Position numbers and translations under genes: made by a program
Notes under the pieces: generated by a model
The model's input: the letters and a program-made list of their open reading frames with translations, nothing else
Told to the model about the DNA's origin: nothing
Database searches by the model: none
Shown here: one piece after another, positions 3,249 through 56,107 of the stretch
How the letters are laid out: each line of letters starts with the position of its first letter
How positions within the stretch are numbered: position 1 is the stretch's first letter
Assembly: GCF_040219635.1 (NCBI RefSeq)
Contig: NZ_JAVJSC010000003.1
Location: forward strand, 548,120-612,119
Length of the DNA stretch: 64,000 nucleotides
Direction of reading: 5' to 3'
Origin: Pyruvatibacter sp.
GTDB taxonomy: Bacteria > Pseudomonadota > Alphaproteobacteria > CGMCC-115125

Positions 3249-3260
3249 GACGGTCGTCCT

Positions 3261-3653: not shown

Positions 3654-3667
3654 GGAACATCCTATAT

Positions 3668-3683: not shown

Positions 3684-3741
3684 TTAGAGAGTTATAATAT
3701 ATATGTCAAGCAACATGACAGCCATACCGAGGAGAGCAGAC

Positions 3742-5217: not shown

Positions 5218-5225
5218 TGCTCCGC

Positions 5226-33601: not shown

Positions 33602-33648
33602 AAAATTGGAGCGGGCGATGACATTGGAGCTCACGACCCCACCCCAGG
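33602..33648. repeat. decayed copy of the tRNA-Gly 3' part (old att remnant)
   Basis: aaaattggagcgggcgatgaCattGgaGctcacgaccccaCcc... The first roughly 38 positions (tRNA 3' end through the T-arm) carry only 3 mismatches to 56029-56081, after which the alignment decays. The T-loop is destroyed (TTCGAAT becomes CTCCAAT on the tRNA strand), so it is not a functional tRNA. Confidence 0.75.
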
Positions 33649-33791
33649 ATTGAATTGACATTCTTAGTGCCAATTTATTAGTCTTGCGGCAAGCGCTGGA
33701 CGCTGGTGCATGAGAGGCGGTTCCACCCGGCGATCAGACCTGCATCAGCAGCCAAAAGCAGGCTAGCCAGGTCGTACCTCGGAGGGGTGTA

Positions 33792-36121: not shown

Positions 36122-36174
36122 AAATTGGAGCGGGCGATGAGATTCGAACTCACGACCCCAACCTTGGCAAGGTT
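36122..36174. repeat. attL-type direct repeat: perfect 53-bp copy of the tRNA-Gly(GCC) 3' part
   Basis: aaattggagcgggcgatgagattcgaactcacgaccccaaccttggcaaggtt is identical to 56029-56081. Confidence 0.95.
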
Positions 36175-36533: not shown

Positions 36534-37334
36534 ATGGAAAATTCCGGCTCCACTTTCTCCGGTCGCTTCGGGTACCACGCGCCTGCAGTCGAGATCACTA
36601 TTCGCGAAGACGCCCCGACTTCGGTGCGCGATGGCATCTTGATGCTGGGCTACGGTGCTGACCTAGGACCGGGGGAAATGCGCGACATCCTCTGTCGGGT
36701 CTTACTGACTCGCCCCGATCAGAATAATTGGTCGGCTACCAACATTGAGCGTGAGGTCTCAGGGCTAATCGACGATGCGCCTTGGTACAAGGTCTATGAC
36801 TTTGCGGAACGTCTTTACATCAAACTAGGTGCAGATGGTCATACGGGCGACCGTCAAGACTCCTTCGAAGCTCAACTCAATCAGCTCTTCCGCGAGAAGG
36901 GTGTCGGGTGGGAGATGAAAAACGGAGCCATTGTCGCTCGCGGCTCAGAAGCATTCACTCTGGCAACTGGGCACGCGACGGATGTCATGCGCGAAAGTGG
37001 GACCCCAACTGCCGCGAGCGAAATCCACGAAGCGCTTCGCGATATTTCACGCCGCCCAGATGCCGATGTAACGGGCGCAATCCAGCACGCCATGGCAGCT
37101 TTAGAATGTGTGGCGCGGGAAGTGGATGGCAGTAGCGATACGCTAGGACAGATCATCAAGCGACTTAACCTGGCTGCACCACTTGATGGTTCACTGCACC
37201 AACTATGGGGATTTGCCTCGCAGCAAGGTCGCCATATTCAAGAAGGTCGGAATCCAAGCTTCGAAGAAGCAGAGTTAGTAGTTACGCTTGCGAGCGCGGT
37301 TAGCATTTTTCTCCTTCGGCGTCGGGACGGTTGA
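36534..37334 (+). CDS. AbiJ-like abortive-infection protein (AbiJ-NTD4-type N-terminus, HEPN-like C-terminal module)
   Basis: N-terminus ...FSGRFGYHAPAVEITIRED... fits the FSxRxGy...i pattern of AbiJ N-terminal domains. C-terminus ...PDADVTGAIQHAMAALECVAREV...TLGQIIKRL...LWGFASQQGRHIQEG...EEAELVVTLASAVSIFLL fits the AbiJ/HEPN helical module. Assigned from memory. Confidence 0.5.
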   Translation: MENSGSTFSGRFGYHAPAVEITIREDAPTSVRDGILMLGYGADLGPGEMRDILCRVLLTRPDQNNWSATNIEREVSGLIDDAPWYKVYDFAERLYIKLGADGHTGDRQDSFEAQLNQLFREKGVGWEMKNGAIVARGSEAFTLATGHATDVMRESGTPTAASEIHEALRDISRRPDADVTGAIQHAMAALECVAREVDGSSDTLGQIIKRLNLAAPLDGSLHQLWGFASQQGRHIQEGRNPSFEEAELVVTLASAVSIFLLRRRDG

Positions 37335-37346
37335 TTCAGCCGACCA

Positions 37347-39689
37347 TCAAGCCTTATCACGCGCCATTTGCTTTTGCAGAAGCGGGCGGACGGTTGAGGT
37401 CATTTTCCCCTGCGCCCAGTTTTCAAGACCCGGAACAACAGACCCTTTGAGACTGTTGAGCGCATGATGGACCCTGACGGTCGCCGGCAGGGAGTCAGCC
37501 TCGACCAAGCGCAGGAAGAAGAAATCAAGATCACGCCATTCCTCATGTAAGAGTTTGTGAATGGCGGAAGTCAACGGCTCCGCCAAAGCGTGTTCCGCAC
37601 TCAAGACGCTGCCCGCATTTCCAAGGTTTGCAATACTATGCGCTTTGAGGTTGGCCATGTTTCCACCGCGCACAAGCGGCATCCGGGCGCGGCCGACATG
37701 AAGCATAACCTCTATGTCAAGGCGCTCCTCAATTGTTTCGCCAAAAGCGGTACGGACGGACGCTAGTTGTGAGAGGATCAGCCAGGACATCATGTTGCCG
37801 TATGCAACGCCGAAATCGTCATCATCCGATAGTGGAGTGTAGTCGCCAACGACATTGCCATACACATCGAGAGCGGCTACCTCGCCGTCTTCATTAAAAT
37901 GGAGGTCGCGTACGGTACCGTCTGCCATCTGAATTCCGATGGTCTTGCCAAATAGACTCTCAACGCAGGGCCGATCATTCATCAGCGATCCCATCAAGCC
38001 TAAAGGCAGGCCATTTCGCTTTCGACCGAGATCGCAAAGGGCCTGTGCGCCTACAATATCGCCGAGAAAGAAGCGGCTTGCTTGCTGAATCAGTACTCGC
38101 CAAGCCTCATCAGGCTCAGCGTTGAGGGCAACTTCGATCGTGTCGGCGAGCTCCCGCGCCAATTCGCTCATGAAAAGTTCGGGTACGCGGAAGGCAACGA
38201 GATCCTTACCGGTCGAATGCCGATAGAAGCCCACCCATCCTTCCTCCTGTAGTTTGACCGCAGCGTCCTCACCATCAGAACTGAGCGCGTCCCGCCGGAT
38301 GACGAATGCGTTGGTGCCGGCCAAGGTAACTTCCGGGTTCGGGGCTTCCTCATCACAGAGCGCGTCGCGGACAATAAGGCGGTGACGGCGTGCGACATCA
38401 TGGAGCGGATCGAAGCGCTCTCTCGCACTCTGAACTAGTCTGAGACCCATGGTAGCAGGAATTGCAGCAGCAACGTTTTCCTTCTCAGGTAACGCACCGC
38501 CCGCAAGGACGGAGCGAAGCACCCAGGCAGCGCGATATTCGTCAGACAGCTCCGCGCCTGGATAGAAGAAAATCCGGTTCCTGGAGAGATGTTCTCTGAT
38601 CGCACTGAACTCATCATCGTCGAGGGTGTCGACTTGCACAACCTTAGCAATTGATGAGACCGCTGTTTGGCCGCGGCCCGTGCCATCGAGAAGGATGTCA
38701 TCGGCGCACTCCGTGCAACCTACAAGACGGAGACCTTCGCCAAAGCCCGTCTCGGCGAGCTCCTCGAAATCGTGTGCAACCGGAGATCCGGGCTTCAATC
38801 CGTCGACGGCGAGGACAAGTGCGGGCTTGCGCGTCGACTGGGACATTCGCCTCAGCCAAGTGCGGACATCATCCGCTTCCAGCTTCCATTCCAGCGCCGC
38901 TCCCAGAATATTGGCCAGACGTTGAAAGAGACCAGGACCGGCTGTTGCGCCATTGACCATGAATATGCCCCAATCAGGCGAACAGCGCGTGGCGACCGCC
39001 AATTCGCGCAGGACGTTGCTCTTGCCAGCGAGAGGGGGCCCCTCAACGATCACCGCTTTGGTCGCGCTGTCGAATTGCGCGATGATCTCGTCCGTGGCCC
39101 TCCGGTGAAACAGCAGCTCCTCACAGAATGGCTTAAATGTATCGCCTGGTTCTCCCGTCATGCGATCGATCAATTTATCAGTGCGTTGACGCACTGCTTC
39201 AACCCAAACGCTGGTCTCTGGACCCATTAGGACCTCAATGGCCCAGCTATTGTCAGCTGCAGCCAACTTACCGATGTTGGCGAAGACCTTTTCGATAGTC
39301 GCCGCGCCATCGAGACCAAGAGGTAGTTCCTTGCCGCTATCGACCTGGCGAACCCACGTCTCGTTGCCATTGCTCACAATAACAAGAGGCGGCCTAGGAG
39401 TCAGAACTGCAGCATAGCTCTGGCCTTGCTTAAGATCCTGCGCCATTAGCGCCTTATCCGCGCGCTTAAGCTCGACAACGGCGAGCGGGTCCCCGTCATA
39501 AAGAAGTAGAAGGTCAGCCCGTCCCTCGGCCTCCCAAGCGGCAGTGCCGTCATAGTCATTATCCGTATGTCCGAGTTTGAGCTTGAGGCGCTTCTCGACC
39601 TTAAAACTCTCAGCTTTCACATGCGGAAAAGCTTCGCGGGCTAAGCCCACAACATAGGATTGCAACTGTGCTTCGGGAACGACTGTCAT
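37347..39689 (-). CDS. PD-(D/E)xK (HsdR_N/Mrr-like) nuclease domain fused to a P-loop STAND-like NTPase and a ~450-aa C-terminal region
   Basis: Residues 1-125: ...GRADLLLLYDGDPLAVVELKR...QGQSYAAVL...LVIVSNGNE (D...ExK, HsdR_N-like). Walker A IVEGPPLAGKSNVL; Walker B ALVLAVDGL; then LRLVGCTE and VVQVDTLDDDEFSAIREHL, resembling STAND/NACHT post-Walker-B motifs. Confidence 0.6.
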   Translation of the reverse strand: MTVVPEAQLQSYVVGLAREAFPHVKAESFKVEKRLKLKLGHTDNDYDGTAAWEAEGRADLLLLYDGDPLAVVELKRADKALMAQDLKQGQSYAAVLTPRPPLVIVSNGNETWVRQVDSGKELPLGLDGAATIEKVFANIGKLAAADNSWAIEVLMGPETSVWVEAVRQRTDKLIDRMTGEPGDTFKPFCEELLFHRRATDEIIAQFDSATKAVIVEGPPLAGKSNVLRELAVATRCSPDWGIFMVNGATAGPGLFQRLANILGAALEWKLEADDVRTWLRRMSQSTRKPALVLAVDGLKPGSPVAHDFEELAETGFGEGLRLVGCTECADDILLDGTGRGQTAVSSIAKVVQVDTLDDDEFSAIREHLSRNRIFFYPGAELSDEYRAAWVLRSVLAGGALPEKENVAAAIPATMGLRLVQSARERFDPLHDVARRHRLIVRDALCDEEAPNPEVTLAGTNAFVIRRDALSSDGEDAAVKLQEEGWVGFYRHSTGKDLVAFRVPELFMSELARELADTIEVALNAEPDEAWRVLIQQASRFFLGDIVGAQALCDLGRKRNGLPLGLMGSLMNDRPCVESLFGKTIGIQMADGTVRDLHFNEDGEVAALDVYGNVVGDYTPLSDDDDFGVAYGNMMSWLILSQLASVRTAFGETIEERLDIEVMLHVGRARMPLVRGGNMANLKAHSIANLGNAGSVLSAEHALAEPLTSAIHKLLHEEWRDLDFFFLRLVEADSLPATVRVHHALNSLKGSVVPGLENWAQGKMTSTVRPLLQKQMARDKA

Positions 39690-40087
39690 TCCCCTATTAT
39701 AGGAATTTTAGTGGGGCAACCGCGATAAAGTTTCATCGAACACCCACCAGTGTCTTAGTTGTTTCAAGAGGCTGACAATTTGAAAATCCTTATTTAGCTG
39801 TGTGACGAACGTGTCGGGAGCAGAACCTTAACTAGCTAGAGCGCCCTGCACGCTGCAGGATTTGGCCATTTGACGATTGACCACCGGAAGGTGGACCTAG
39901 CTTGGAAGAAGCCAGGGACCTCGGCAGGGTGATTTTCATTCCGATGGCATTGGCCCAACCGGTTGCGGTACGGAGCGGGTAGCTGAGCGGCGACCCACGT
40001 TGTTCTCGAGGGAATTGAGCCCCTTAATCGAACAGTAGCGACTATCGAGGGTGTCCGTCCTTCCTAATCGAGTGAGATTCTTTGCCG

Positions 40088-40855
40088 ATGAACAGAAAGC
40101 AATTCATCCAGTCCAATGGAGCGGAGTGTGCGAACTGGACATGGAGCTGGTCTTTTGTGAACCACGCCAACAAAATGGTCATATTTGGACTGTGGGAACA
40201 GTATGACCACGGGGGCTTGGGCTTACTGATGGCGAAGGACTGGGCCATCAGCAACCGGGGAAGAAAGCAACCAGGGTATGCGCAAGCCGTGCATCATCTC
40301 AACTTAGTCGCGGACAAAGGCTACATACTGTTTACATTTCCTATCCGGCCCAAGTTTGGTGTGGAAAAGCGTGACACCCTCGAACCAACCAAGATATCCA
40401 GTTTCAAGCCGGAGTTGACGCAGAAAGTTCTTATTGTCCTAGGCGGCGGTTGGTACGCAGCGCCCGCTGGACAATCCAGCATCCCAGACGAGGAAGTCAG
40501 CTCCGGCGAGCTCCTTTTTGAAGGAGCTGTCCAATCGACTACTGTGAACGCTTACGAGCGCAACGCTGGAGCTCGCCAAATGTGTTTGGATCATTTCGGA
40601 CACACCTGCTGCGTATGCGCATTTGACTTCGAGCACGTCTATGGAGAGCTGGGAGCGGACTACATCCATGTTCACCATATCATTCCGCTCAGTGAAATAG
40701 GGGAAGAGTACGCGATTGACCCCACAGCAGATTTGGTGCCGGTATGCCCGAACTGCCACGCGATGATCCATAGGACACGCCCAGCCCTGACCATAGAAGA
40801 ACTAAAATCGCAGATAGAAAAGGCCTCTCCTGCGCATGGTCAGCATCGAGGGTAG
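40088..40855 (+). CDS. HNH endonuclease (McrA-like C-terminal nuclease) with an unassigned ~150-aa N-terminal domain
   Basis: C-terminus CCVCAFDF...YIHVHHIIPLSE...LVPVCPNCHAMIH is a classic HNH/McrA zinc-finger nuclease. The ATG at 40088 is preferred to the TTG at 40082. Confidence 0.8.
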   Translation: MNRKQFIQSNGAECANWTWSWSFVNHANKMVIFGLWEQYDHGGLGLLMAKDWAISNRGRKQPGYAQAVHHLNLVADKGYILFTFPIRPKFGVEKRDTLEPTKISSFKPELTQKVLIVLGGGWYAAPAGQSSIPDEEVSSGELLFEGAVQSTTVNAYERNAGARQMCLDHFGHTCCVCAFDFEHVYGELGADYIHVHHIIPLSEIGEEYAIDPTADLVPVCPNCHAMIHRTRPALTIEELKSQIEKASPAHGQHRG

Positions 40856-42941: not shown

Positions 42942-43151
42942 ATGAAAACGGCTAAACAAGACCCATCGGTGCTGTATGGCACTATTCCCAACGTAGCAAA
43001 ACTTCTGGGTATCAAGGAGCACGCCCTCCGGCGTGCGGTGAACAAGGGGCTCATCCCCTTCTACACACCGTTCGGGTCTCGCCGCTACGTGCGGCTTGAT
43101 GAGGTGCAAGCCTTCATTCAGGCACACCGCTGCCTGGGAGGTGCGCTATGA
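42942..43151 (+). CDS. excisionase/AlpA-type helix-turn-helix DNA-binding protein
   Basis: ...IPNVAKLLGIKEHALRRAVNKGLIPFYTPFGSRRYVRLDEVQAFI is a MerR/Xis-type HTH. GGAGA lies before the ATG at 42942 (42936 also possible). The stop overlaps the primase ATG (ATGA). Confidence 0.7.
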   Translation: MKTAKQDPSVLYGTIPNVAKLLGIKEHALRRAVNKGLIPFYTPFGSRRYVRLDEVQAFIQAHRCLGGAL

Positions 43152-45202
43152 AGTTGCGTCCACTTGAACAGGGCATAGACGATTGGCGAGAGAGTCGGAT
43201 ACCAATCGTTCCCTTCAAGCCCAGGCTGAAAGAACCTTCAGAAAAAGGCTTTCTTGGATACACCTCCAACCCGGCAAGTCGACAGCGAATTGACGAATGG
43301 AAAGCGAAGTTTCCCGATCACAACATCGCTGCGGTCATGGGAAGCAAGATTGCCGACGGCTGGCTGATCGCAGCAATTGATATTGACGACGAGGTCTGGG
43401 TGAATGTCATAAAGGCCCTATTCCCGAATTTCGTCAGTGCTAAACGCGGAAAGAAAGGACTGACGATCTTTGTAAAGGTCCGCACCGGGCTGAACATCAA
43501 ATCAACGTCGTTCCAAAGTGTAAGCGTTTTTGGCGGTGTGGACTTTCTGTTCAACGGTAAGTGTTGCCTTGTTCCGCTGTCAATTCATCCGGAAACAGGC
43601 AAGCCATATGAGTGGATTGGCAAGCCGCTCTATGAATGCTCACCGGATGAAATTCCCGAGTGTACCAAGCGCCACCTCGACATTATCAAGGCGACAGTTA
43701 CCTCCGCCCAATCGGCCATCGTTATCAGTGGCACAGGCACACATGATGCTGGACTCGCATTGGCGGCCGAACTTGTGAGGGCCGGTGCAACGGATGAGGA
43801 GATCAAAGCGATGTTCGCGGCGCTCCTGCCAACAGACTATTCCGGGAATTCGTTGGACGAGCTCCCGGAATGGATTGAGAGCGCTCGTCGCAAAGGATTT
43901 GATTTACTAGACGACAATACCCCACCGCGCGACGAGCACATCGCGCGTCTGGTCGAAGAAGAGCTTGGCTTGATCGCTTATGTCGAAGGGCACGGCTTTC
44001 TTCAATACGAAGAAGGCCACTGGCAGAGCCTACTCGACAGCCTCATTGATCAGGTGTCGAAGAAGCACATAGTGGCCGGCGGTGGCAGATCGTATGCGAG
44101 TTCCTTGCTGCGACCGGTGCGTACTTGCCTGTCACTAAATGTGCTTCGGCCCAAGTTCGGTGAACACAGCGGGCTTATCTGCTGCAACAACGGTACACTT
44201 GATGTTCGGACTGGCGAGTTGCTCGAGCACTCTCCAGACCATGAACTTCGATATCGTCTAGACATCGACTACGACCCCAAAGCCGAGTGTCCCACCTACG
44301 ACAAGCTCATCAACGATACACTGAAGGGACATGCTGGGTGCATCAGGCTATTCGATGAGTATGCTGCGCTCACGTTGATCCCGAACATGCGTTTCCAGGT
44401 TGCATTATACCTTGTCGGTGAAGGGGGTAGTGGCAAGAGCACCTTGCTGAGAGTTGTGGAGATGGTTCACGATCCCGATGCGGTCAGTACGACCCCGCTT
44501 GATAAGGTCGACGACGAACGGCACCGAACCGACATTGCCAACAAATTGGTTTGCATCAGCTACGATGTGCAAACTCAGTATAAAATCTTTGGTGAGACTT
44601 TCATCCGCATCACCGGCGAGGACTCAATTACGACCCGGCGGCTCTATCAGGAAGTCGATAGCCGGGTTCGGCCTTCAGTCCGTTTCATCGGCTCAATGAA
44701 CCCAGAGATGCCCGGGTTTATTGCAGCACCGGACGCCCTGAAGCGGCGACTGTTGTTAGTGCCCTGCGGTCCTCGTGTCGAAGACCCCGATCCTGACCTC
44801 TTCGACAGACTTAAAGCTGAGAAAGCCGGCATTCTCGCGCGCTATGTCACGGCTCTTAAACGGCTCCTGAAACGAAAACGCTTCGATATCCCTGGCTGCG
44901 TCAGGGACGAAGTACGGGAGTATGTCAGCTACCAAGACGCCTTTGATGCCTATGCGGCAGAACGACTTCGGCGCAGCGAAAGTACAACTCCGGTGGCCGA
45001 AATTGCTCTGGATTTCAACGATTGGGCTGATCGGCATGGCGAGAAGCATCTCAGCACTTTCGTGGTTGGTCGCAAGCTCAAACGGCTGGGGTTCACCGGA
45101 GGCCAAGAGCGGCGCGATAGGGGGCAAGGCAGCACCAATACAAGGGTGGTGAACGCCGAGATTACGGTGCCCCGCCGGAGCCGGACGAGCCCCGAATTCT
45201 AG
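43148..45202 (+). CDS. bifunctional primase-polymerase / D5-P4-type replicative helicase
   Basis: N-terminal prim-pol block ...NIAAVMG...IAAIDIDD...; central D5_N-like region. Walker A GEGGSGKSTLL and Walker B-like KLVCISYD. 684 aa. Confidence 0.8.
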   Translation: MKLRPLEQGIDDWRESRIPIVPFKPRLKEPSEKGFLGYTSNPASRQRIDEWKAKFPDHNIAAVMGSKIADGWLIAAIDIDDEVWVNVIKALFPNFVSAKRGKKGLTIFVKVRTGLNIKSTSFQSVSVFGGVDFLFNGKCCLVPLSIHPETGKPYEWIGKPLYECSPDEIPECTKRHLDIIKATVTSAQSAIVISGTGTHDAGLALAAELVRAGATDEEIKAMFAALLPTDYSGNSLDELPEWIESARRKGFDLLDDNTPPRDEHIARLVEEELGLIAYVEGHGFLQYEEGHWQSLLDSLIDQVSKKHIVAGGGRSYASSLLRPVRTCLSLNVLRPKFGEHSGLICCNNGTLDVRTGELLEHSPDHELRYRLDIDYDPKAECPTYDKLINDTLKGHAGCIRLFDEYAALTLIPNMRFQVALYLVGEGGSGKSTLLRVVEMVHDPDAVSTTPLDKVDDERHRTDIANKLVCISYDVQTQYKIFGETFIRITGEDSITTRRLYQEVDSRVRPSVRFIGSMNPEMPGFIAAPDALKRRLLLVPCGPRVEDPDPDLFDRLKAEKAGILARYVTALKRLLKRKRFDIPGCVRDEVREYVSYQDAFDAYAAERLRRSESTTPVAEIALDFNDWADRHGEKHLSTFVVGRKLKRLGFTGGQERRDRGQGSTNTRVVNAEITVPRRSRTSPEF

Positions 45203-45511: not shown

Positions 45512-46741
45512 ATGTCGTTCAAATCATCAATCACCAAGCGCGTCCGGAAGCGCAAGAACAAAGCCGGTGAGGTCGTGCTGCACACGCGGCATGTCCTCAA
45601 TTACAAACACCCAGCGGACGGGAAACGTCGGCAGGAGTTTTTCGAGCGTCGCGCCGAAGCACAGGATCGCCAATCACAATTGGCGGCGAGTATCGAGATC
45701 GACCCTTTCTTCGATCCGATGAGCGGGCTGACTGTATCCAAGGCCGTCGACCACTGGCTGGAGAACAAACAGAAGCGCGTGAAGGCAAGTAGCTATGCAG
45801 CCTGCCTGGCTGTCGTGGAGCACATCCGGGGGCCGGTGTTGATTGGCACACGGGACGAGCGCGCGCAGTTCAAGAAGACGGGCATCGCGCCCGTCGGCAC
45901 CGACGTGCAGGAGCGCCTCGGCAAGCTCCTGGTGTCGGAGCTGAGAACTGCCCACATCCGCACATGGTTCAACGAAGTCCGAGACACTTCCGGTGCTTAC
46001 ACCGCTCGGCGGGCCAAGTCGTTCTTCGGCAGCGTCCTTGCTTTGTCCGAGGAGGACTTCGGCATCCGCGTTCCTTCCATGCCCACACAGTTGGGCAAGG
46101 GTAATCCCAAGACACGCAAATTGATCCTTGAACCGCAGCAAGTTGCCCAGGTTATCCAAGAGGCCCAAGCCGATAGTGAGCACGGCCTCTACTATGCCTT
46201 CCCGTTCCTTGCCGGCACCCGACCGAGCGAGCAACTGGGGCTGTTGTGGTCCGAAGTGGACTTTGATCAGAACACGATCCGCATCTGCCGTATCCAGGAG
46301 CGGGATGGGACCCTATGCGAGACGACCAAGACGGCCGCAGGGACGCGCGAGGTACCCATGGGCGGTACCCTTAGGGCGATGTTGCTCCAATGGCGCCTCC
46401 GATGCCCAAGGGAGGCCGGGGAGCTATATCGCGTGTTCCCCGGTCCCGGTCGACTGCAGCCGTGGCCACTCCCGCGCCTCGGAGGCGGTCCGCTGCTGTA
46501 TCAGAATTGGCGACGGAGGTACTGGCAGCCCGTGTTCAAGCGGCTGGGTTTGCCATACGTGACGCCCCACTCGGCGAGGCACACCTACATCTCGACGCTA
46601 CAGGCGCAGGGTATTGAGGTCGGACTAGTGGCCAAGATGGCGGGGCACGCCAATCCGACCGTGACTCTGGGCATCTATACCCAAGCAGTGAGGGGCGGGG
46701 AGGACGCTGTCCGGAAGCTCGACGAGGCATATTCGAGGTAG
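45512..46741 (+). CDS. int: tyrosine-type site-specific integrase
   Basis: N-terminal SAM-like/arm-binding region. Catalytic region ...FLAGTRPSE (R) ...HSARHTYIS (HxxR) ...GHANPTVTLGIYTQ (H...Y). Confidence 0.9.
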   Translation: MSFKSSITKRVRKRKNKAGEVVLHTRHVLNYKHPADGKRRQEFFERRAEAQDRQSQLAASIEIDPFFDPMSGLTVSKAVDHWLENKQKRVKASSYAACLAVVEHIRGPVLIGTRDERAQFKKTGIAPVGTDVQERLGKLLVSELRTAHIRTWFNEVRDTSGAYTARRAKSFFGSVLALSEEDFGIRVPSMPTQLGKGNPKTRKLILEPQQVAQVIQEAQADSEHGLYYAFPFLAGTRPSEQLGLLWSEVDFDQNTIRICRIQERDGTLCETTKTAAGTREVPMGGTLRAMLLQWRLRCPREAGELYRVFPGPGRLQPWPLPRLGGGPLLYQNWRRRYWQPVFKRLGLPYVTPHSARHTYISTLQAQGIEVGLVAKMAGHANPTVTLGIYTQAVRGGEDAVRKLDEAYSR

Positions 46742-46873
46742 CCCGGGGCCCATCTCATTTTCGCGGCATAGCAGACCGCCCGCCCCGAGACAGAAGCATT
46801 TGAGGTAAAAACCTCTTTACACCAGAGCTATCCCACCGCTACACTCTCAACAGTAGGAATAGGAGTTCTTGGC

Positions 46874-47440: not shown

Positions 47441-47511
47441 GCCACTAAACCAAGGCGGTACGGGGAGGCGAGGACGCTGTCCGGAAATTGGATGATGCCT
47501 ATTCGAGTTAA
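47441..47511 (+). pseudogene. 3'-terminal remnant of a second integrase gene
   Basis: Encodes (stop)-TKAVRGGEDAVRKLDDAYSS-stop, versus the YTQAVRGGEDAVRKLDEAYSR-stop of the intact int at 46672-46741. DNA similarity continues for about 30 bp past both stop codons. Confidence 0.8.
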
Positions 47512-47574
47512 CCCGGGAGCACTCTCTTTTTTTTGCAGTGTCGTAGGTCACAGCTCCGCCGCTTCCAAGATGGA

Positions 47575-48736: not shown

Positions 48737-50098
48737 TCACAATTTGTCGAAGACCGATCCCATGCGCGGGCTAAACAGCCGCTCATAGGTCTTCAAGAGG
48801 TAGGAGTCCGTCATGCCGGCTACATAGTCACAGACCGATCTGTGGATGTGACCTACGTCTTTGCAATTCTCGTAGACGTCAGTCGGCAAAAACTTTCCTG
48901 GCTCCGCCAGCATCACTTCAAAGACCGCGATCGCCATCGTCTGACCCTTGAACTCAAGATGTTGAACGCTTGGGCTTAAGATAACGGCTTCGTAGACAAA
49001 GTCTTTGAGAGCTCTCACGAAACGATACGCAGCGTCGGGCATCGAAGCACGAAACTTCAAACGGGGCTCTTCGAACTCAGGCTCTTCTCTAATCTGCACG
49101 CTTGGGATGACGTAGTTCAGAATACGATTGATTTGGTGCTTTCGTTCTCCGCCTTCGGCGAACAATCTGTCTACAAGTCCTCCGTATATGTCATTGCCGT
49201 ATTCGTCCTTATAGTCGCTGAGATAGTCGAGCATGCCTTGGCATTTTTCAGACGTGACAGACTTTTCAAATTGCTCGCGCGTCACGAGACGAAGCGCCAA
49301 GACATCTTCGAGATCGTGGATGCCGTAGCTGATGTCATCTGCCAAATCCATGATGCTGCAAGCGAATGATTTGTGCTGGGCAGAATGGTGCTTATTGCTC
49401 TTGGAATCGAAGCTTTGCAGCAGGTCTCTGTCAGACTGAGAGAGAGGCTCAAGCAACCAATCAACAACATCCTGCTCGCAATCAAGGTAGCATTTGGGCG
49501 GCTTCGATGCGTTCCGGTCCAGAATAGCCGTGCCGCTTGTGTTTGACAGCATGGCCGGAAAAAACGCCGGACTACGCGCCTTGCTGAATGGGACTGGATA
49601 CTTCAGTACACCGAGGAGTGTCTCCCGCGCGAGATTTGATCCAGATTTTGCAGAGAATTTCTCTAGTTTCGACAGTATGCGAAGTGTCTGACCATTGCCT
49701 TCAAAGCCGCCATGGTCCCGCATACAATAGTTGAGCGCGACCTCACCACCATGTCCAAATGGGGGGTGGCCCAGGTCATGCGTGCATGCAATGGCTTGCA
49801 TCATTGAGCGCTCGGGAATGAACTGCACCGCCGCATGCTCTGGAAAAGTGTGAGGTAACTGTTTCGCGAGGCCCCCGGCGATCTGTGCCACCTCAAGCGA
49901 ATGGGTCAAACGTGTACGATAAAAATCGCTATCGCCGAGGTTGAGGATTTGGGTTTTGCCCTGTAGACGCCGGAATGAAGCTGAGTGGACAACGCGCGCA
50001 TAGTCCACATCACCAGGAGACCTCGCATCAAAGGGCTTTTGAACGTATTCCTCCATACGATCATGCCAGATCGATTGCGTACCTTTGATATCAGTCAT
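48737..50098 (-). CDS. dgt: dGTP triphosphohydrolase-family HD phosphohydrolase (Dgt-like)
   Basis: YRTRLTHSLEVAQIAGGLA and THDLGHPPFGHGGE (HD motif), C-terminal ...DYVAGMTDSY. AAGGAG lies 8 nt before the ATG. Confidence 0.85.
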   Translation of the reverse strand: MTDIKGTQSIWHDRMEEYVQKPFDARSPGDVDYARVVHSASFRRLQGKTQILNLGDSDFYRTRLTHSLEVAQIAGGLAKQLPHTFPEHAAVQFIPERSMMQAIACTHDLGHPPFGHGGEVALNYCMRDHGGFEGNGQTLRILSKLEKFSAKSGSNLARETLLGVLKYPVPFSKARSPAFFPAMLSNTSGTAILDRNASKPPKCYLDCEQDVVDWLLEPLSQSDRDLLQSFDSKSNKHHSAQHKSFACSIMDLADDISYGIHDLEDVLALRLVTREQFEKSVTSEKCQGMLDYLSDYKDEYGNDIYGGLVDRLFAEGGERKHQINRILNYVIPSVQIREEPEFEEPRLKFRASMPDAAYRFVRALKDFVYEAVILSPSVQHLEFKGQTMAIAVFEVMLAEPGKFLPTDVYENCKDVGHIHRSVCDYVAGMTDSYLLKTYERLFSPRMGSVFDKL

Positions 50099-51008: not shown

Positions 51009-52499
51009 ATGTTGACGAAAATCAAAAATCCCAAACATTCAGGCCCCATGCCAACAATAACTGCTCTTGCTGACAGGGTGCGGCGCGATGTGTCTCCTCG
51101 GTTGGATGGCAAAACGCGGGAAGAACTTGGCCAGTTCCTGACCCCGGAGTCGATTGCCCGCGACATGGCGACAATGTTTGGTCAACTGCCGCAGGATGTT
51201 GTCTTGCTGGACGCTGGGGCTGGCGTGGGCTCCTTAACAGCCGCGTTCGTATCGGAGGCCCTCTCTAGAGATGAGCCACCGCGCTCAATCACCGTCACTA
51301 GTTTCGAGGTTGACGAGGGGCTAGCCCAGCTTCTTGCGGAAACGCTAGAGCGTTGTCGCGAGGCCTGTGAGGGAGCCGGGGTTCGCTTCGCATCTAAAGT
51401 AGTCTGTGATGACTATATTCTGTATTCGGCTGAACCGCTTCTCACAATGGTCGACAGTTTTAACTGCGCCATCCTCAACCCGCCTTACGCAAAGCTCAAC
51501 AGCGCCTCACGCTGGCGGCAAGCCCTACGCTCGCAAGGCATAGAGACAGTCAACCTCTATTCGGCCTTTGTCTCACTCGCCGTCAACCAGCTAGAACCCA
51601 GCGGCGAGCTTGTCGCCATCACACCACGCTCATTCTGCAACGGGCCGTACTACCAACCCTTCCGCCGCCACGTGTTAGATTCATCCAGCATTGAACGCCT
51701 TTATCTCTTCGAATCACGAAAGACGGCCTTCAAAGACGACGCCGTCCTGCAGGAGAACGTCATCTTTCACCTTCGCAAAGGCAAACCGCAATCCAAACTA
51801 GTCCACCTTGAAACAGATGGCGGCGATACTCGAGAGGTCCCATTTGAGGAGATTGTTCTACCGGATGACGAACACCACTTCATCCGACTGACCATCTCGA
51901 AAGAAGACGCTGAGCTGGCCGAGCGGGTACAGGCGCTGCCTTCCACACTGGTCGACCTCGGCTTGAATGTATCAACCGGCCGCATTGTCGATTTCAGAGC
52001 AAAGGAAGCCCTACGCAAGACGCACGGAAATGATACCGCTCCCCTGATCTACCCAGCTCATCTTCGGGACGGAGGTGTTCGCTGGCCTATCCCAGACTTC
52101 AAGAAGTACAACGCGATCGAAGTTACCGAGCGCATAGAGCGTGAGCTCGTTCCGCCGGGCCGTTACCTCCTCGCCAAGAGGTTTTCCTCAAAGGAAGAGA
52201 AGCGGCGGCTAGTCGTATCCGTGTATGATGCCGTGGCCCCGGCCGCGTTCGACAATAAGCTGAACTTTTTCCATTGCGACGGCAAAGGACTCCCAGATGA
52301 GCTCGCTCTCGGGCTCGCTGCCTTTCTAAATTCGACTGCCGTGGATGACTACTTCCGGCTTTTCTCCGGCCATACGCAGGTCAACGCCACAGACCTGCGG
52401 AACCTCCACTATCCTGCGCGAGACGTTCTCGAGGCCCTTGGCCGGGCAGACCTGGGCGGGCAGGAGAAAATTGATGCGGCAGTAGAGGCGCTCTTTTAG
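51009..52499 (+). CDS. N6-adenine DNA methyltransferase (Eco57I/PstI-BsuBI-type, gamma class)
   Basis: FLTPESIARDM, motif I LLDAGAGVGSL, motif IV ILNPPYAKL, and a TaqI_C-like target-recognition C-terminus. Confidence 0.85.
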   Translation: MLTKIKNPKHSGPMPTITALADRVRRDVSPRLDGKTREELGQFLTPESIARDMATMFGQLPQDVVLLDAGAGVGSLTAAFVSEALSRDEPPRSITVTSFEVDEGLAQLLAETLERCREACEGAGVRFASKVVCDDYILYSAEPLLTMVDSFNCAILNPPYAKLNSASRWRQALRSQGIETVNLYSAFVSLAVNQLEPSGELVAITPRSFCNGPYYQPFRRHVLDSSSIERLYLFESRKTAFKDDAVLQENVIFHLRKGKPQSKLVHLETDGGDTREVPFEEIVLPDDEHHFIRLTISKEDAELAERVQALPSTLVDLGLNVSTGRIVDFRAKEALRKTHGNDTAPLIYPAHLRDGGVRWPIPDFKKYNAIEVTERIERELVPPGRYLLAKRFSSKEEKRRLVVSVYDAVAPAAFDNKLNFFHCDGKGLPDELALGLAAFLNSTAVDDYFRLFSGHTQVNATDLRNLHYPARDVLEALGRADLGGQEKIDAAVEALF

Positions 52500-53497
52500 C
52501 CAGACAGCAGCAATTGCTTCGCCGGGTCATCCCGAATCCAGATGTAAGTATTAACCGCGACATTGCGCTGGGCTCCTTGCCGAGCGGCTGCCTCTTTCCA
52601 CGTACGGTATGCCGTAGTGAAGCCCACGCCAGCCTTGCCACACCGATGGGCGAAGGCCTGCATCCCTTTGACTTTATGCGCGTCCACTTCCCCGTCGCTG
52701 GTCACAGCCTCTATCACCCACAGCCAATCTGTTTCCGGGTGCCTGAGGAGAACGTCGGGCATCGGGTCGGCAAGCGTGAGAACCGCGCCAGCGGCCTCCA
52801 TCTTGGCGCGTTCCTCGGGACTGATTCGGTCCCCATCGCTGTCGTCCACATAAAGAACCTCGTACCCCGCGAGAAAGCGCGGGGCATAATACTCGACACA
52901 ATCATTGATAAGCGCAGCGTGCCCAGTGTCTGAGGCCGCCTTCGCCGCCGCTGCCATCTTAGCTTGGAATGCCAACCGCTCCCGGGCCATCTCGGAAGCG
53001 GCCCATGCATCGAGGCTCTCCTGCCACTCCCCATCCGGCGCTGTTAGTATCTCCCGGAAGGCCGCCTCAAGCCTGTAGGAGGAGTTGGGGCTCTTCGCTT
53101 TGGTGTGGCCCGGGACGAATTCACCGCGGTCGAGCGTGACGGCCTCGATGCCCCCCAGATCACGGAGCGGTTTGATCCAGTAATCCCGGCCCTCCCGATC
53201 TAGCTTTCCGGCACCACGCTGTAGGATGCCGATATGACAGGCAAGGTGCGCTGTCGACGCGCCGTCGGATAGCGTTGAACCCTTTGGAGCCTTTGAGAAC
53301 CAGCTAAGAGTCTCGTCGTCTAAAAGTGCAAAGACGGCATCAATGAGATCATTATTACCTTGGAGATCAAGATGCCTGAGAACCCGCCGAATCTTATCCT
53401 TGGTAACCCCTTGGTATTGATCTGACACAGCCCGACCGTACTCTGCTACCCGCCTTTCCCTTAGACCCTGCACTTTCCCATCCAGCGCCATACCCAT
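52496..53497 (-). CDS. BsuBI/PstI-family type II restriction endonuclease
   Basis: C-terminal block ...PDVLLRHPETDWLWVIEAVTSDGEVDAHKVKGMQAFAHRCGKAGVGFTTAYRTWKEAA matches my recollection of the BsuBI_PstI_RE core (..liEAVtS.G.v...R...l...). The start is likely the ATG at 53497 or 53491 (the track ORF reaches 53677). The 3' end overlaps the methylase stop by 4 nt. Confidence 0.6.
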   Translation of the reverse strand: MGMALDGKVQGLRERRVAEYGRAVSDQYQGVTKDKIRRVLRHLDLQGNNDLIDAVFALLDDETLSWFSKAPKGSTLSDGASTAHLACHIGILQRGAGKLDREGRDYWIKPLRDLGGIEAVTLDRGEFVPGHTKAKSPNSSYRLEAAFREILTAPDGEWQESLDAWAASEMARERLAFQAKMAAAAKAASDTGHAALINDCVEYYAPRFLAGYEVLYVDDSDGDRISPEERAKMEAAGAVLTLADPMPDVLLRHPETDWLWVIEAVTSDGEVDAHKVKGMQAFAHRCGKAGVGFTTAYRTWKEAAARQGAQRNVAVNTYIWIRDDPAKQLLLSG

Positions 53498-53789
53498 CTC
53501 CGCATAAAGCGTTGAAAATTGAATCGATGCCACAAAGACACGGGTCAAGCCAGCTCTATCGATTTCCTGACAATCTCCGCGACCGACCACAAACGCCCAT
53601 CTGCGGGGCATTAATATGGCGCCATATCCAGCAGCTCGCCACACCCCTTTGCGAAAGCGTTTTCTGACAGGCTTCAAAAGGGGCGCTATAGATGTCAGCT
53701 GAGATAATAGTGCCGGGCACCAGCTCTACAGCACATCCGGCCCGCCTCAACGACCATAGATTTTTCAGGCCAGACGAAGGATCACAGCA

Positions 53790-54863
53790 ATGCCCCGTTC
53801 TATTTCACAGCAGGATGTCAGCTGGTTTCTAGACCTGCATGAGAAGAACCAACTTGATCTCGACCCTCCGTATCAAAGACGGAGCGTCTGGACACTTAGC
53901 GACAAGCGGTTTTTCATAGACACCATCCTGAATGACTATCCAGCGCCTCCCATCTTTCTACACAAGTCGCTAGACGAAGGCGGTAGGCCCACATATCACG
54001 TCGTTGATGGCAAGCAACGACTTACTACCATAATTGATTTTGTCGCCGGTAAAATCCGTATACCCGACGACTTTGGCGATACCAGCTTGCAGAAGAAACG
54101 ATGGAAAGACTTGCAGCGCGAAACTCGCGAAGCATTCTGGAACTATGTCCTTATCGTCGAGATGCTGCCAAGCGTTGACGAAGCTTCCGTAAGAGACACG
54201 TTTGAGCGAATTAACAGGAATTCGAGGAAACTCGAGCGACAAGAAATCCGCCACGCAAAGTTTGATGGTTGGCTGATAAATTCCGTCGAAACCGAGGCCA
54301 ACAGAGATGAGTGGAAAGAGTTCGGCATAGTAACAACGGCACGCGCTAAACGTATGTCAGACGTCCAATTCATTTCGGAATTATATGCAGTTGTCCTCAA
54401 ACGCAAACTGAACGGCTTCGATCAAGATTGGCTGGACAATCTTTACGCAGAATATGAGGACCCCCAAGAAGATCCTTTGTTCATCGAACAAAATTTCGCA
54501 GAGGTCTTCGAGAAAACAAAGAAAGTTGTTGGGGAAGTTTTAGAGCACTGCCCCGACATCAAGAACCACACCAAAGTACTGGTACATTTTTACACGCTTT
54601 GGGGGTTCTTGGTGCTGCACACCGACAAAAAATTTGATCCAAAGGTTTTTGCAGACAAGTACATCACTTTCATGAACAACGTGACAGAGGAGATAAAAGC
54701 AGCGGCATCCGACAACCCCAGCCCCACAGTGGATGAGGCAATCCGCATCTACGCAGCCAACTCACGCGGAGCGAGCACAGATCATACCCCGCGCGCGGCA
54801 CGTCTCAGTCAACTGGTAACCGCAATGGCAGGGATCCAAGGCGTCAACCATGAAGGTAGCTAA
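53790..54863 (+). CDS. DUF262 (GmrS/ParB-like NTP-binding) domain protein without a DUF1524 nuclease domain
   Basis: LDLDPPYQRRSVWTLSDKRFFIDTIL (QR..vW) and VVDGKQRLTTI (DGQQR-type) motifs, followed by a ~200-aa helical C-terminal region. GAAGGA RBS. Confidence 0.8.
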   Translation: MPRSISQQDVSWFLDLHEKNQLDLDPPYQRRSVWTLSDKRFFIDTILNDYPAPPIFLHKSLDEGGRPTYHVVDGKQRLTTIIDFVAGKIRIPDDFGDTSLQKKRWKDLQRETREAFWNYVLIVEMLPSVDEASVRDTFERINRNSRKLERQEIRHAKFDGWLINSVETEANRDEWKEFGIVTTARAKRMSDVQFISELYAVVLKRKLNGFDQDWLDNLYAEYEDPQEDPLFIEQNFAEVFEKTKKVVGEVLEHCPDIKNHTKVLVHFYTLWGFLVLHTDKKFDPKVFADKYITFMNNVTEEIKAAASDNPSPTVDEAIRIYAANSRGASTDHTPRAARLSQLVTAMAGIQGVNHEGS

Positions 54864-55830
54864 TGGAATCCGCAACACGTTCCATGAACAACATCCGTTC
54901 TTCGAGCGCTTGGCGGAGGAGGTTGAAGGAAAGCTCGGTGGGCAGGTTGTTCAAAGAGGTTGGTTCTTCGTCCACAGACTTAAGGAACTAGAGAGTTTTG
55001 CGCTCAAAGTCGAAACGGGGCGCGTGGAGCATCCTGATCGCATGGATGACTTTTTTGCTTGCACAATTGTTGTTCCGACGGTCGCTCAGATCGATGACGC
55101 AGAGACCCTCGTTCGCTCGATTTACAAAGTAGTCGAGCGGCGCCCGAACGACAAAGATAGAACCCACAAGAAGGCATCGGATTTTGTATTCGATGATCTG
55201 CGAATTTATTTGCAGCGACAACCTTCAGACACGGGGCGGAACGCCGACCTAGATGAGTTGGTGTTCGAGGTACAAATCAAAACTATCTTGCAACATGCTT
55301 GGAGCATCGCTTCACATGATCTGATCTACAAGACAGACGCCATTAGTTGGTCGAAAGAGCGTATCGCGTTTCAGGTCAAAGCGATGCTTGAACATGCAGA
55401 AATAGCCATTGCGGAAGCTGAGCAATTGGCAAAGTCGTCAGTGATGTTGGTGAGTGACCAAAATACTGAAGATACTTTAACTGTCGTCACCGCCCTTCGC
55501 TCGTTTTGGGATGCAGAGCGCCTGCCGACAGACATCAAACGGCTTGCCGAGAACGTAAGGGGAGTGCTCGAAGCCTGTGAACTACAACCTAAAGCTTTGC
55601 CAGACCTTCTAGAGGATGAGCGCAACCGCATTGGCTTTATCCCGAAAGACCTCGCTCCATACGCTTTTTTTGTACAGGCACTCGCCCATGCCAAGTCACT
55701 CGATCTGGAAAAGAAACTGAACAGCCACAAGAATAGGCGCATCAAGATTTTTGTGCATGACGATATGGAGCTACCAACCTGGATGAAAGACGACCACAAG
55801 CGGATTGTTCGCCTAAAGAAGAATACTTAA
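54850..55830 (+). CDS. RelA/SpoT-domain (RSH/small-alarmone-synthetase-like) nucleotidyltransferase
   Basis: HRLKELESFALKV...MDDFFACTIVV...FDDLRIYLQ...LVFEVQIKTILQHAWSIASHDLIYK follows the R.K..S...K / D..g.Riv / EvQIRT...H.W...H...YK order of the RelA_SpoT synthetase fold. The ATG overlaps the DUF262 ORF by 14 nt. Confidence 0.7.
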   Translation: MKVANGIRNTFHEQHPFFERLAEEVEGKLGGQVVQRGWFFVHRLKELESFALKVETGRVEHPDRMDDFFACTIVVPTVAQIDDAETLVRSIYKVVERRPNDKDRTHKKASDFVFDDLRIYLQRQPSDTGRNADLDELVFEVQIKTILQHAWSIASHDLIYKTDAISWSKERIAFQVKAMLEHAEIAIAEAEQLAKSSVMLVSDQNTEDTLTVVTALRSFWDAERLPTDIKRLAENVRGVLEACELQPKALPDLLEDERNRIGFIPKDLAPYAFFVQALAHAKSLDLEKKLNSHKNRRIKIFVHDDMELPTWMKDDHKRIVRLKKNT

Positions 55831-56032
55831 GCTGACAGCAAACGCGCACAGCCTCATACGCACTAGCGCCCCACTGTATTCCTCTAAAGAGTTGGGTGCA
55901 GAGCTGCAGACCGGGACACTCTCAGCCGTTCATGTAACCCACGCGTAACCGAAGGGCGCATGGGAGCCCCAAACGCCCGCAAGTTGAGCAAATGAAATTG
56001 GCGGAAAAGCACCACTCTAAGCGCTAAGAAAT

Positions 56033-56107
56033 TGGAGCGGGCGATGAGATTCGAACTCACGACCCCAACCTTGGCAAGGTTGTGCTCTACCCCTGAGCTA
56101 CGCCCGC
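56033..56107 (-). tRNA. tRNA-Gly: tRNA-Gly (anticodon GCC)
   Basis: Reverse complement: GCGGGCG-TA-GCTCAGGGGTAGAGC-A-CAACC-TTGCCAA-GGTTG-GGGTC-GTGAG-TTCGAAT-CTCAT-CGCCCGC-TCCA. This gives a full cloverleaf, a GCC anticodon and an encoded CCA. Confidence 0.95.

Follow-up and report, generated by a model that had tools for sequence, protein, structure and literature searches.

Two overlapping genes in a 64,000-nucleotide (nt) window of the Pyruvatibacter sp. genome (contig NZ_JAVJSC010000003.1) are the subject of this analysis. Gene 1 (53790-54863, forward strand) encodes a 357-amino acid DUF262 NTPase, for which we propose a role as a sensor of DNA or of its modification state and as a switch, and gene 2 (54850-55830, forward strand) encodes a 326-amino acid RelA/SpoT-type pyrophosphokinase, the proposed effector. 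We found that the pair is widely conserved and nearly always adjoins the gene of an adenine DNA methyltransferase (MTase). It may represent the conserved core of a mobile, MTase-linked defence module resembling a restriction-modification (RM) system, which would consist of an N6-adenine MTase, an optional BsuBI/PstI-type restriction endonuclease (REase), the DUF262 protein and the RelA/SpoT homologue (RSH)-like enzyme. We regard this reading as about an even call.

Conservation of the pair and of its adjacent methyltransferase

A sequence-only reading of the window had reported two same-strand open reading frames (ORFs) with a 14-nt overlap, had quoted motif strings for both protein families, and had staked its interpretation on the two genes occurring together in other genomes. 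The overlap (54850-54863, forward strand), in which the stop region of gene 1 runs into the start of gene 2, and the motif strings are all present. Each of the two proteins has a 100% identical counterpart among annotated Pyruvatibacter sp. proteins, and genes 1 and 2 are real genes, far beyond chance. The 14-nt overlap suggests translational coupling; promoter and terminator scans gave scores no better than those on shuffled sequence.

We scanned one genome per GTDB species for relatives of gene 2 and obtained 80 loci at 34-63% identity from more than 12 bacterial phyla and from archaea. The hosts comprise Alpha-, Beta-, Gamma- and Deltaproteobacteria, Nitrospirota, Acidobacteriota, Bacteroidota, Planctomycetota, Actinomycetota, Cyanobacteria, Chloroflexota, Gemmatimonadota, Verrucomicrobiota and Clostridia, as well as the archaeal Thermoplasmata and Nitrosopumilaceae. 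A gene 1 homologue is located immediately upstream of gene 2, on the same strand, in 78 of the 80 loci (78 of the 79 testable ones), and the expected co-conservation is thus borne out. In one exception, L039, only 133 bp of contig lie upstream of the gene 2 relative; the other, L074, is a non-orthologous paralogue in which a partial RSH core is fused to a sigma-70 region-4 helix-turn-helix (HTH). Junction and residue statistics were taken from 65 intact pairs, which are 34-63% identical. The junction between the two genes ranges from a 38-nt overlap to a 14-nt gap in 64 of these, with a 4-nt overlap in 14 loci and a 14-nt overlap, like that of the window, in 11 others. Pairwise distances of gene 1 and gene 2 are correlated (r = 0.83, Mantel p = 0.001). 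Judged by their junctions and distances, genes 1 and 2 form a translationally coupled, co-evolving cassette.

The full-length gene 2 family comprises 297 clusters at 50% identity among 1.84 billion representatives, and no DUF262-RSH fusion protein, which could serve as Rosetta-stone evidence, was found in the best 150 representatives. The family is present in 7 of 72,556 plasmid records and in none of 50,697 phage records, in which we looked for a phage origin; there are two instances in the 2.9 million contigs of IMG/VR and none at the DNA level in E. coli. In one IMG/VR contig (L083) an insertion of ~1.6 kb interrupts the DUF262 gene (3249-3992 and 5624-5995), and the downstream RSH-like gene is apparently intact. 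The paralogue at L074 (6025-7323, Uliginosibacterium aquaticum, 432 amino acids) represents a different architecture on the same catalytic core, with neither a DUF262 gene nor an MTase nearby.

We clustered the 771 flanking ORFs all against all and found a third conserved family beside the pair, which resolves into gamma-class N6-adenine MTases (PF02384/PF07669) and BsuBI/PstI-type REases (PF06616 and PF17728). The REase is sometimes fused to the MTase, and the linked MTases range from enzymes of ~440 amino acids to 860-amino acid MTase-REase fusions. For a census, profile hidden Markov models (HMMs) were built from these neighbours and run on six-frame translations of the 80 loci: 40 contain both MTase and REase, 29 contain an MTase only, 9 are untestable because the contig ends are too close, and 2 contain no MTase (L033, and L074, which is not a pair). 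Of the 70 loci that carry the pair and could be tested, 69 have an adjoining MTase gene; a REase is present in 40 of these 69 and not detected in 29. The MTase gene is usually located 5-250 nt from the pair and occurs in four different orientations; the commonest order is M>(R>)G1>G2> (M, MTase; R, REase; G1 and G2, genes 1 and 2), and convergent, divergent and downstream arrangements are found as well. Within the whole 64-kb window, the MTase HMM matched the adjacent gene only. Motif IV of the MTase (NPPY/NPPF) is intact in 66 of 70 cases; the four exceptions comprise three MTases that are plainly truncated and a full-length 544-amino acid segment (L052) in which the motif was not found. The sequence-only reading had presented the two genes as the complete unit. 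As a pair they are co-conserved, but the limits of the unit were drawn too narrowly, as the MTase and REase genes of the window had been overlooked.

The MTase gene of the window (51009-52499, forward strand) encodes an M.PstI/BsuBI-like N6-adenine DNA MTase of the Eco57I/N6_Mtase family (PF07669, 3e-10; PADLOC MTase_II, 4.2e-166) with NPPY in its translation. The REase gene (52496-53677, reverse strand), which is convergent with the MTase gene and divergent from gene 1, encodes a BsuBI/PstI-type type II enzyme (PF06616, 1e-22; PADLOC REase_II, 1.3e-18). With a gamma-class N6-adenine MTase carrying NPPY and a BsuBI_PstI_RE domain, the two have the features of a type II RM system of the BsuBI/PstI kind. 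The window REase is unusually divergent, consisting of the catalytic domain only (1e-22, compared with ~1e-60 at other loci) and having no BsuBI_PstI_RE_N HTH domain, and its gene has the opposite orientation to that in the common order M>R>G1>G2.

In the MTase-only loci, the gap between the MTase gene and gene 1 measures 5-74 nt. We considered a hidden endonuclease in these loci and ruled it out in those checked: the units are located directly between housekeeping genes (purA in an archaeon; cmk, pyruvate-formate lyase and polysaccharide deacetylase elsewhere), and no endonuclease is thus hiding beside them. On a conjugative Rhizobium plasmid, the genes have been independently annotated as 'DUF262 domain-containing protein / hypothetical protein / N-6 DNA methylase'. 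The order in Achromobacter xylosoxidans is M>R>(GIY-YIG-DUF4357)>G1>G2, the additional GIY-YIG and DUF4357 protein (L087, 4848-5684) being inserted between the REase and the DUF262 gene. Besides MTase and REase, we found no further conserved protein among the 771 clustered ORFs. The only recurrent extras are a small HTH protein in five Bacteroidota loci and a 218-amino acid protein in two loci. A 102-amino acid HTH_3 protein precedes the MTase in L055 (647-955), L058 (2120-2428), L061 (60-368), and L076 and L078 (2119-2430). It is probably an RM controller (C) protein, and the whole operon of MTase, REase, DUF262 and RSH genes would then be under C-protein timing control.

We compared the evolution of these parts. 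The mean distance is 0.76 for the MTase, 0.53 for gene 1 and 0.57 for gene 2. On the tree of the pair, loci with MTase and REase and loci with MTase only are clustered (nearest neighbours are alike in 79% of cases versus 52% expected, and 0 of 2,000 label shuffles reached 79%), and one locus with both enzymes, L025, is nested among MTase-only loci. The divergence of the MTase, together with its exchange between related pairs, indicates that the pair behaves as a stable cassette that has been repeatedly re-partnered; as far as the sequence families tell, the partner is always an adenine MTase of the same superfamily.

Predicted activities of the two proteins

Gene 1 matches PF03235 (GmrSD_N/DUF262; E = 1e-22, 81.7 bits, cut-off 33.2) and gene 2 matches PF04607 (RelA_SpoT; E = 2.5e-10, 41.0 bits, cut-off 27), the two families to which they had been ascribed before. 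The gene 1 protein is composed of a ParB-fold DUF262 NTPase domain (residues ~18-158) and a helical, ParBDB-like C-terminal domain, and its variable segment spans residues ~225-320. A DUF1524/HNH half had been reported missing from gene 1, and we likewise found no Pfam match to it at E <= 1 in gene 1 or in gene 2. The motifs of DUF262 proteins have been defined as QRxxxW, DGxQR and FxxxN (PMC12065111). They are found in gene 1 as YQRRSVW (motif I), DGKQR (II) and FERIN (III) and are invariant in 65 of 65 orthologues, with Y28, Q29, R30, W34, D73, G74, K75, Q76, R77, F138 and N142 present in every pair. With its NTPase motifs intact and a C-terminal domain of DNA-binding type, the gene 1 protein would more readily be a sensor or switch than a plain antitoxin, the other role first considered for it.

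The best PADLOC matches of gene 1 are NsnA of Menshen (4.9e-35, residues 9-276) and PD-T4-2_A (3.3e-20), and the GmrSD, BrxU and SspE models of PADLOC do not match it. The sequence-only reading had pictured a GmrSD-like system with a swapped nuclease. That picture has to be given up, as gene 1 is closest to the standalone DUF262 and ParBDB proteins NsnA and PD-T4-2_A, and since variable partners are already known in this standalone class, a swapped effector represents an established theme and not a first. Gene 1 also matches the PADLOC type II restriction enzyme model PDLC03418 'REase_II' (9.4e-12). Given such a match by a protein without a nuclease domain, other DUF262 proteins may be listed among the type II endonucleases, and such assignments may need revisiting. 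NCBIfam (June 2026) contains no dedicated model for gene 1 or gene 2. A Foldseek search of the PDB with the AlphaFold2 model of gene 1 returned noise only (E > 2), and a profile search of PDB sequences yielded no matches. As the structural route is uninformative, the DUF262 assignment is based on Pfam, PADLOC and the motifs.

The gene 2 protein consists of a pyrophosphokinase domain with the small alarmone synthetase (SAS) fold (residues ~1-195) and a C-terminal domain of ~130 amino acids, which is conserved yet matches nothing else and has a median net charge of +2. The length of the family is uniform, at ~320-330 amino acids. The AlphaFold2 model of gene 2, with a predicted local distance difference test (pLDDT) score of 82, upholds the fold: Foldseek retrieved B. 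subtilis SAS1 (5dec; E = 1.7e-8, target-normalised template modelling (TM) score 0.75), S. aureus RelP (6ewz) and Salmonella-phage CapRel (7ztb; 5.6e-7), all with probability 1.00, and target-normalised TM scores reach ~0.75-0.77 over the first ~200 residues. Searched against the PDB, the family profile identifies CapRel (7ZTB, E = 0.08, motifs in register) as the closest solved structure by sequence. A residue-level comparison with RelQ, RelP, FaRel and Tas1 was sought as well; only CapRel is reachable by sequence, and the acceptor specificity of gene 2 can thus not be assigned. The only PADLOC match of gene 2 is the RSH core of candidate PDC-S33 (1.6e-8).

The RSH catalytic motifs of gene 2 align with those of CapRel: Syn1 (R-x-K-x3-S-x3-K), the Syn2 Asp, Syn4 (E-x-Q-x-[RK]-T) and H-x3-Y-K. 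The predicted ATP- and Mg-binding residues R43, K45, K53, D67, E140, Q142, K144, T145, W151, H156, Y160 and K161 do not vary among the 65 sequences, and S49 is kept in 64 of them. The catalytic residues first noticed in the window protein are thus retained throughout the family. Invariant active-site residues in both proteins indicate that genes 1 and 2 are under selection as active enzymes.

A proposed mechanism and competing explanations

In the mechanism that we propose, the MTase would mark host DNA as self, and the DUF262 protein, bound to DNA, would act as a switch that is driven by NTP and responds to the modification state of DNA, as in SspE, GmrSD and BrxU. The DUF262 domain of SspE senses the phosphorothioate (PT) mark of the host, and its NTPase switches the effector on (PMC10952713); for NTP-dependent switching by the state of DNA, SspE is the demonstrated case, and GmrSD, BrxU and NsnA have been proposed to work in this way (PMC10952713, PMC12065111). 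DNA in the wrong state, most likely unmethylated invader DNA, would lead the DUF262 protein to activate or release the gene 2 enzyme, which would transfer pyrophosphate from ATP to a 3'-OH acceptor. This acceptor could be a purine nucleotide, yielding a toxic alarmone and depleting ATP, or the CCA end of tRNA; with either, growth or translation would stop and the infection would be aborted. In four-gene versions such as that of the window, the PstI-like REase may provide a parallel first-line arm and the pair a second, non-nucleolytic arm that relies on the same methylation mark. We infer the direction of sensing, a physical interaction between the two proteins, the toxicity of gene 2 and its enzymatic product. 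The (pp)pApp, ppGpp or tRNA activities previously envisaged for gene 2 represent an extrapolation, given the Phe in place of the G-loop Tyr and the unusual acceptor strand.

Several observations weigh against this mechanism or parts of it. The acceptor strand of gene 2 reads F114-D-D-L-R118, compared with Y155-S-G-I-H in CapRel; position 114 is Phe in 64 and Tyr in 1 of 65 sequences, and D115 and R118 are found in all 65. Toxic SAS (toxSAS) activity requires the G-loop Tyr (bioRxiv 10.64898/2026.04.06.716658); Phe keeps an aromatic residue in this place and may preserve stacking. The arginine of the Syn2 motif D-x-x-G-x-R is replaced by Thr72 in gene 2. Given the unusual acceptor strand and Thr72, the known RSH activities may not apply to gene 2. 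The catalytic domain at the N-terminus carries a slight negative net charge (median -2, window protein -6), which, by the reasoning applied to the GRel enzyme of PANGU, weakly disfavours tRNA as a substrate. The AlphaFold2 model of gene 1 has a mean pLDDT of 68, with values above 85 in the helical C-terminal domain and a poorly predicted N-terminal DUF262 domain. Distances of the MTase correlate only weakly with those of gene 1 (r = 0.38) and gene 2 (r = 0.29), and the MTase has been swapped between closely related pairs, such as L016 and L019, which differ by 0.34 in the pair and by 0.72 in the MTase. Divergence, weak correlation and swapping of the MTase are awkward if gene 1 reads a sequence-specific methylated site. 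Pairs without an MTase within 6-7 kb are found at L033 and at three Pseudomonas poae loci (L084-86), so that an MTase in cis is not an absolute requirement.

At one of the P. poae loci (L084), a gene for a Lit-like Peptidase_U49 protein (4947-5867) is located directly upstream of the pair, and there is no MTase within 7 kb. The Lit-like gene of P. poae and the GIY-YIG gene of A. xylosoxidans are additions of defence type to the pair in cultured hosts. We examined a 535-amino acid neighbour at the P. poae locus as a possible cryptic MTase, and it is not an MTase.

A bolder version of the proposed mechanism, which we consider unlikely, would be a nuclease-free restriction system, in which the MTase marks self, the DUF262 protein reads the mark and switches on the RSH enzyme, and this enzyme, having an F-D-D-x-R pocket in place of Y-x-x-x-H, acts on a substrate new to the RSH family. 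It might chemically cap invading or replicating nucleic acid at its 3'-OH ends or produce a new nucleotide signal, and classical alarmones and the tRNA CCA end would then not be its target.

The weak co-evolution of MTase and gene 1, the MTase swaps and the pairs without an MTase keep three further explanations alive. The first has its precedent in PrrC, an anticodon nuclease encoded within the operon of the type I RM system EcoprrI, where an abortive-infection effector is an established component of an RM operon. Here, the pair would not read DNA; it would monitor the integrity of the linked MTase or RM enzyme, and a phage anti-restriction protein or loss of the RM complex would free the RSH-like toxin and cause abortive infection. 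The MTase/RM link persists across orientations and MTase swaps, and an association at the protein or functional level fits this better than a site-specific reading. Gene 1 is also much more conserved than the MTase, and GmrSD-like genes have been found embedded in RM and Hma systems (bioRxiv 10.1101/2024.01.29.577857). Contact with the MTase would, however, predict a stronger co-evolution than r = 0.29-0.38, and a docking surface common to ~440-amino acid MTases and 860-amino acid MTase-REase fusions is unlikely. As gene 1 moreover keeps a ParBDB domain of DNA-binding type and NTPase motifs typical of DNA-state sensors, and as pairs without any MTase exist, we judge such a guard to be quite improbable.

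We are similarly doubtful of a plain type II toxin-antitoxin (TA) or addiction module, with gene 2 as the toxSAS toxin and gene 1 as the antitoxin, which would be hitch-hiking with RM genes and would stabilise islands by post-segregational killing. A bicistronic, overlapping and co-evolving pair does resemble toxSAS TA operons, the RSH fold and the catalytic residues are conserved, and CapRel, which among solved structures is nearest to gene 2 by sequence, is a toxSAS; the pair also occurs alone in a few genomes, and both an integrative island and a conjugative plasmid are known to carry it. Hitch-hiking would, however, not hold an MTase adjacent in 69 of 70 loci through its repeated replacement and re-orientation across phyla, and clean three-gene insertions between housekeeping genes would not be expected from it. 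Gene 1, a 357-amino acid, two-domain protein with invariant NTPase motifs, is unlike the known toxSAS antitoxins, and PANGU shows that a toxSAS gene and its partner need not be a TA system.

In a type IV-like system, which we think very unlikely, the DUF262 protein would recognise foreign modified DNA and trigger the RSH effector, and the adjoining MTase or RM genes would be an independent, complementary defence, as BREX is with BrxU. It is consistent with this that the DUF262-containing GmrSD and BrxU target modified cytosines (PMC10952713), that RM systems often contain GmrSD-like genes as a complementary defence (bioRxiv 10.1101/2024.01.29.577857), and that some pairs have no MTase. However, operons with an MTase only, with their gaps of 5-74 nt and no endonuclease, would be left with an orphan MTase without a role, linkage in 69 of 70 loci, and to one specific MTase superfamily, is more than complementary co-localisation normally yields, and gene 1 matches none of the GmrSD, BrxU and SspE models of PADLOC. 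A non-immune regulator, in which a methylation reader would control local (p)ppGpp-type alarmone synthesis, for example by coupling replication or methylation state to growth, is suggested by the classical (p)ppGpp synthetase role of the RSH fold, by a non-basic catalytic domain that fits a nucleotide acceptor and by the association with an adenine MTase, but is hardly credible given the sporadic, horizontally transferred distribution (297 clusters at 50% identity, from many phyla and from archaea), the foreign GC content in a tRNA-bounded defence island and the frequent linkage to a true REase.

The genomic island and comparison with known systems

The pair had been described as the last genes of an island, about 200 bp from a tRNA-Gly attachment site. 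We located the integration target, a tRNA-Gly(GCC) gene, at 56033-56107 on the reverse strand with ARAGORN. It overlaps the tRNA-proximal attachment (att) direct repeat (56029-56081), of which an exact 53-nt copy, corresponding to the 3' half of tRNA-Gly, forms the distal att repeat at the far end of the island (36122-36174). The island bounded by these exact 53-nt repeats is 19.9 kb long; the tRNA-proximal repeat is separated from the end of gene 2 by 198 bp, in agreement with the earlier description. The GC content is 49-50% in the pair, 52-59% in the rest of the island and 60-62% in the flanking chromosome.

A defence-type dGTPase (48737-50098, reverse strand; PADLOC dGTPase, 7.5e-141; HD and HD_assoc domains) is encoded ~900 bp upstream of the MTase gene. 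Further island genes encode an HNH protein (40082-40855), PrimPol/D5 (43148-45202) and an integrase (45512-46741). At the distal end, a candidate AbiJ_NTD4/PADLOC PDC-S32 gene (36534-37334, forward strand) adjoins a gene for a 780-amino acid HSDR_N-like protein (37347-39689, reverse strand), whose sole match is a weak HSDR_N-type nuclease domain; the two may constitute another uncharacterised defence pair. By its predicted gene content (dGTPase, AbiJ-like, HNH and RM genes), the 19.9-kb island is a defence island, the setting in which the pair had been placed from the start. In other genomes, PADLOC matches within a set of 100 ORFs flanking the pair include HEC-01A, PDC-S11, PDC-S40, DRT reverse transcriptases, DrmD, Cas1, SIR2, AriA and CapP, which is suggestive of a defence setting there too, with counts that are aggregated per family and have no matched background. 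The integrase and PrimPol/D5 genes are located in the middle of the island and do not adjoin the tRNA gene, and the 3' end of the integrase gene is duplicated in an 87-nt direct repeat (46675-46761 and 47445-47531, 76% identity). The island may thus represent two tandem elements. A degenerate third copy of the tRNA-Gly 3' half (33603-33655, 79%), 2.5 kb beyond the distal att repeat, suggests a remnant of an older insertion. Genes for an alpha/beta hydrolase (34256-35284) and an Rce1-like protease (35434-36042) are found between this copy and the island.

We compared the proposed MTase-linked defence module with systems that share some of its parts. Standalone DUF262 proteins with variable partners are known from PD-T4-2, where the partner is a HEPN protein (PMC10952713), from Menshen, where an ABC ATPase and a nuclease are found (PMC12065111), and from Dazbog. 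PD-T4-2 was reported by Vassallo et al. (2022) and Menshen/NsnABC by Millman et al. (2022) and Li et al. (2025) (PMC12065111). In common with PD-T4-2 and Menshen, our pair has a standalone ParB-DUF262 and ParBDB protein without DUF1524, the presumed sensor, beside a separate effector gene. The partner is, however, a RelA/SpoT-type pyrophosphokinase instead of the HEPN protein of PD-T4-2 or the ABC ATPase and inPIN-nuclease of Menshen, and linkage to an MTase has not been reported for either system. The NsnA-like protein of Menshen and the DUF262 A component of PD-T4-2 thus have their counterpart in gene 1, and the NsnB ABC ATPase, the NsnC inPIN-nuclease and the HEPN B component are missing. 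Indeed, gene 2 matches neither PD-T4-2_B nor NsnB/NsnC in PADLOC and gives no HEPN match, and no ABC ATPase family is conserved across the 80 loci.

The closest logic to that of an MTase, a DUF262 protein and an effector is found in the Ssp system, in which a DNA-modification module is coupled to a DUF262 restriction component that keeps DGxQR. Compared with SspABCD-SspE, GmrSD and BrxU, the mark would here be N6-methyladenine from an ordinary type II-like MTase, and the effector is separate and has no nuclease domain. The N-terminal DUF262 motifs of GmrSD, BrxU and SspE are present in gene 1, and their DUF1524/His-Me (HNH) domain is found neither in the same protein nor in an adjacent GmrD-type protein.

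Gene 2 is a member of the RSH superfamily, with PF04607 above the gathering score, the SAS fold and all catalytic motifs. It shares the RelA/SpoT synthetase fold, the ATP/Mg residues and a C-terminal extension, which in those enzymes is regulatory or binds a partner, with toxSAS enzymes such as CapRel, FaRel/FaRel2/PhRel and that of PANGU type I. The conserved G-loop tyrosine of the toxSAS families CapRel, FaRel2, PhRel2, FaRel and GRel is replaced by F114. In these families, a cognate partner or fused domain neutralises or gates growth arrest, and the corresponding tie of gene 2 is its genetic coupling to gene 1. CapRel and PANGU are antiphage systems with toxSAS effectors, and the PANGU enzyme is activated by a DNA-bound sensor (bioRxiv 10.64898/2026.04.06.716658). 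PANGU type I thus resembles our pair in being a bicistronic unit of a DNA-bound sensor, which activates the enzyme, and a toxSAS protein with a C-terminal domain. The sensor proposed here is a DUF262 protein and not a nucleoid-associated protein such as Pag1A of PANGU or a fused pseudo-ZFD antitoxin, the C-terminal domain of gene 2 is slightly positive (median +2) where PANGU GRel has an acidic DNA-mimic domain, and linkage to an MTase has not been reported for any toxSAS system. With PrrC the pair would share a growth-arresting effector that targets translation or metabolism, here a predicted one, an NTPase regulatory part and the tie to RM on a mobile element. It differs from PrrC in its type II-like MTase with or without a PstI-like REase, its two proteins, its RSH effector and the existence of versions with an MTase alone. 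The window MTase (PF07669) and REase (PF06616) are adjacent, ordinary members of the BsuBI/PstI RM family; classical systems of this kind have two genes, in contrast to the two extra conserved genes found here and to a REase that is dispensable in 29 of 69 loci.

As judged from its protein families, the combination of MTase, DUF262 protein and RSH enzyme lacks defining partner features of each of these families and is not a member of any. The sequence-only reading knew of no described system that pairs DUF262 with an RSH enzyme, and we found no account of one in 7.7 million PMC papers and 0.34 million bioRxiv preprints, PADLOC v2 or NCBIfam, a scope that leaves aside subscription-only literature; the sole co-mention of DUF262 and RelA/SpoT in PMC and bioRxiv is in a list of clusters of orthologous groups (COGs) specific to one P. 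aeruginosa isolate. Confirmation would make this the first RM-like system to wire self/non-self marking by methylation to an effector of alarmone synthetase type instead of a nuclease, and it would link RM and epigenetic immunity, ParB/DUF262 NTP switches and toxSAS/stringent-response enzymes. It would provide a new effector class for modular DUF262 sensors and a new sensor class for toxSAS effectors. Annotations would change as well: 'orphan' adenine MTases beside DUF262 genes would not be orphans, and DUF262 proteins that match the PADLOC type II REase model may not be endonucleases. With its three genes in ~3.4 kb and its occurrence in culturable Pseudomonas, Achromobacter, Rhizobium, Mesorhizobium, Rhodococcus and Pedobacter, the module is a compact study system and could reveal how DUF262 domains read DNA modification. 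Modular DUF262 defences, toxSAS antiphage effectors and modification modules coupled to DUF262 readers, as in Ssp, are each known already; it is their combination that would be new.

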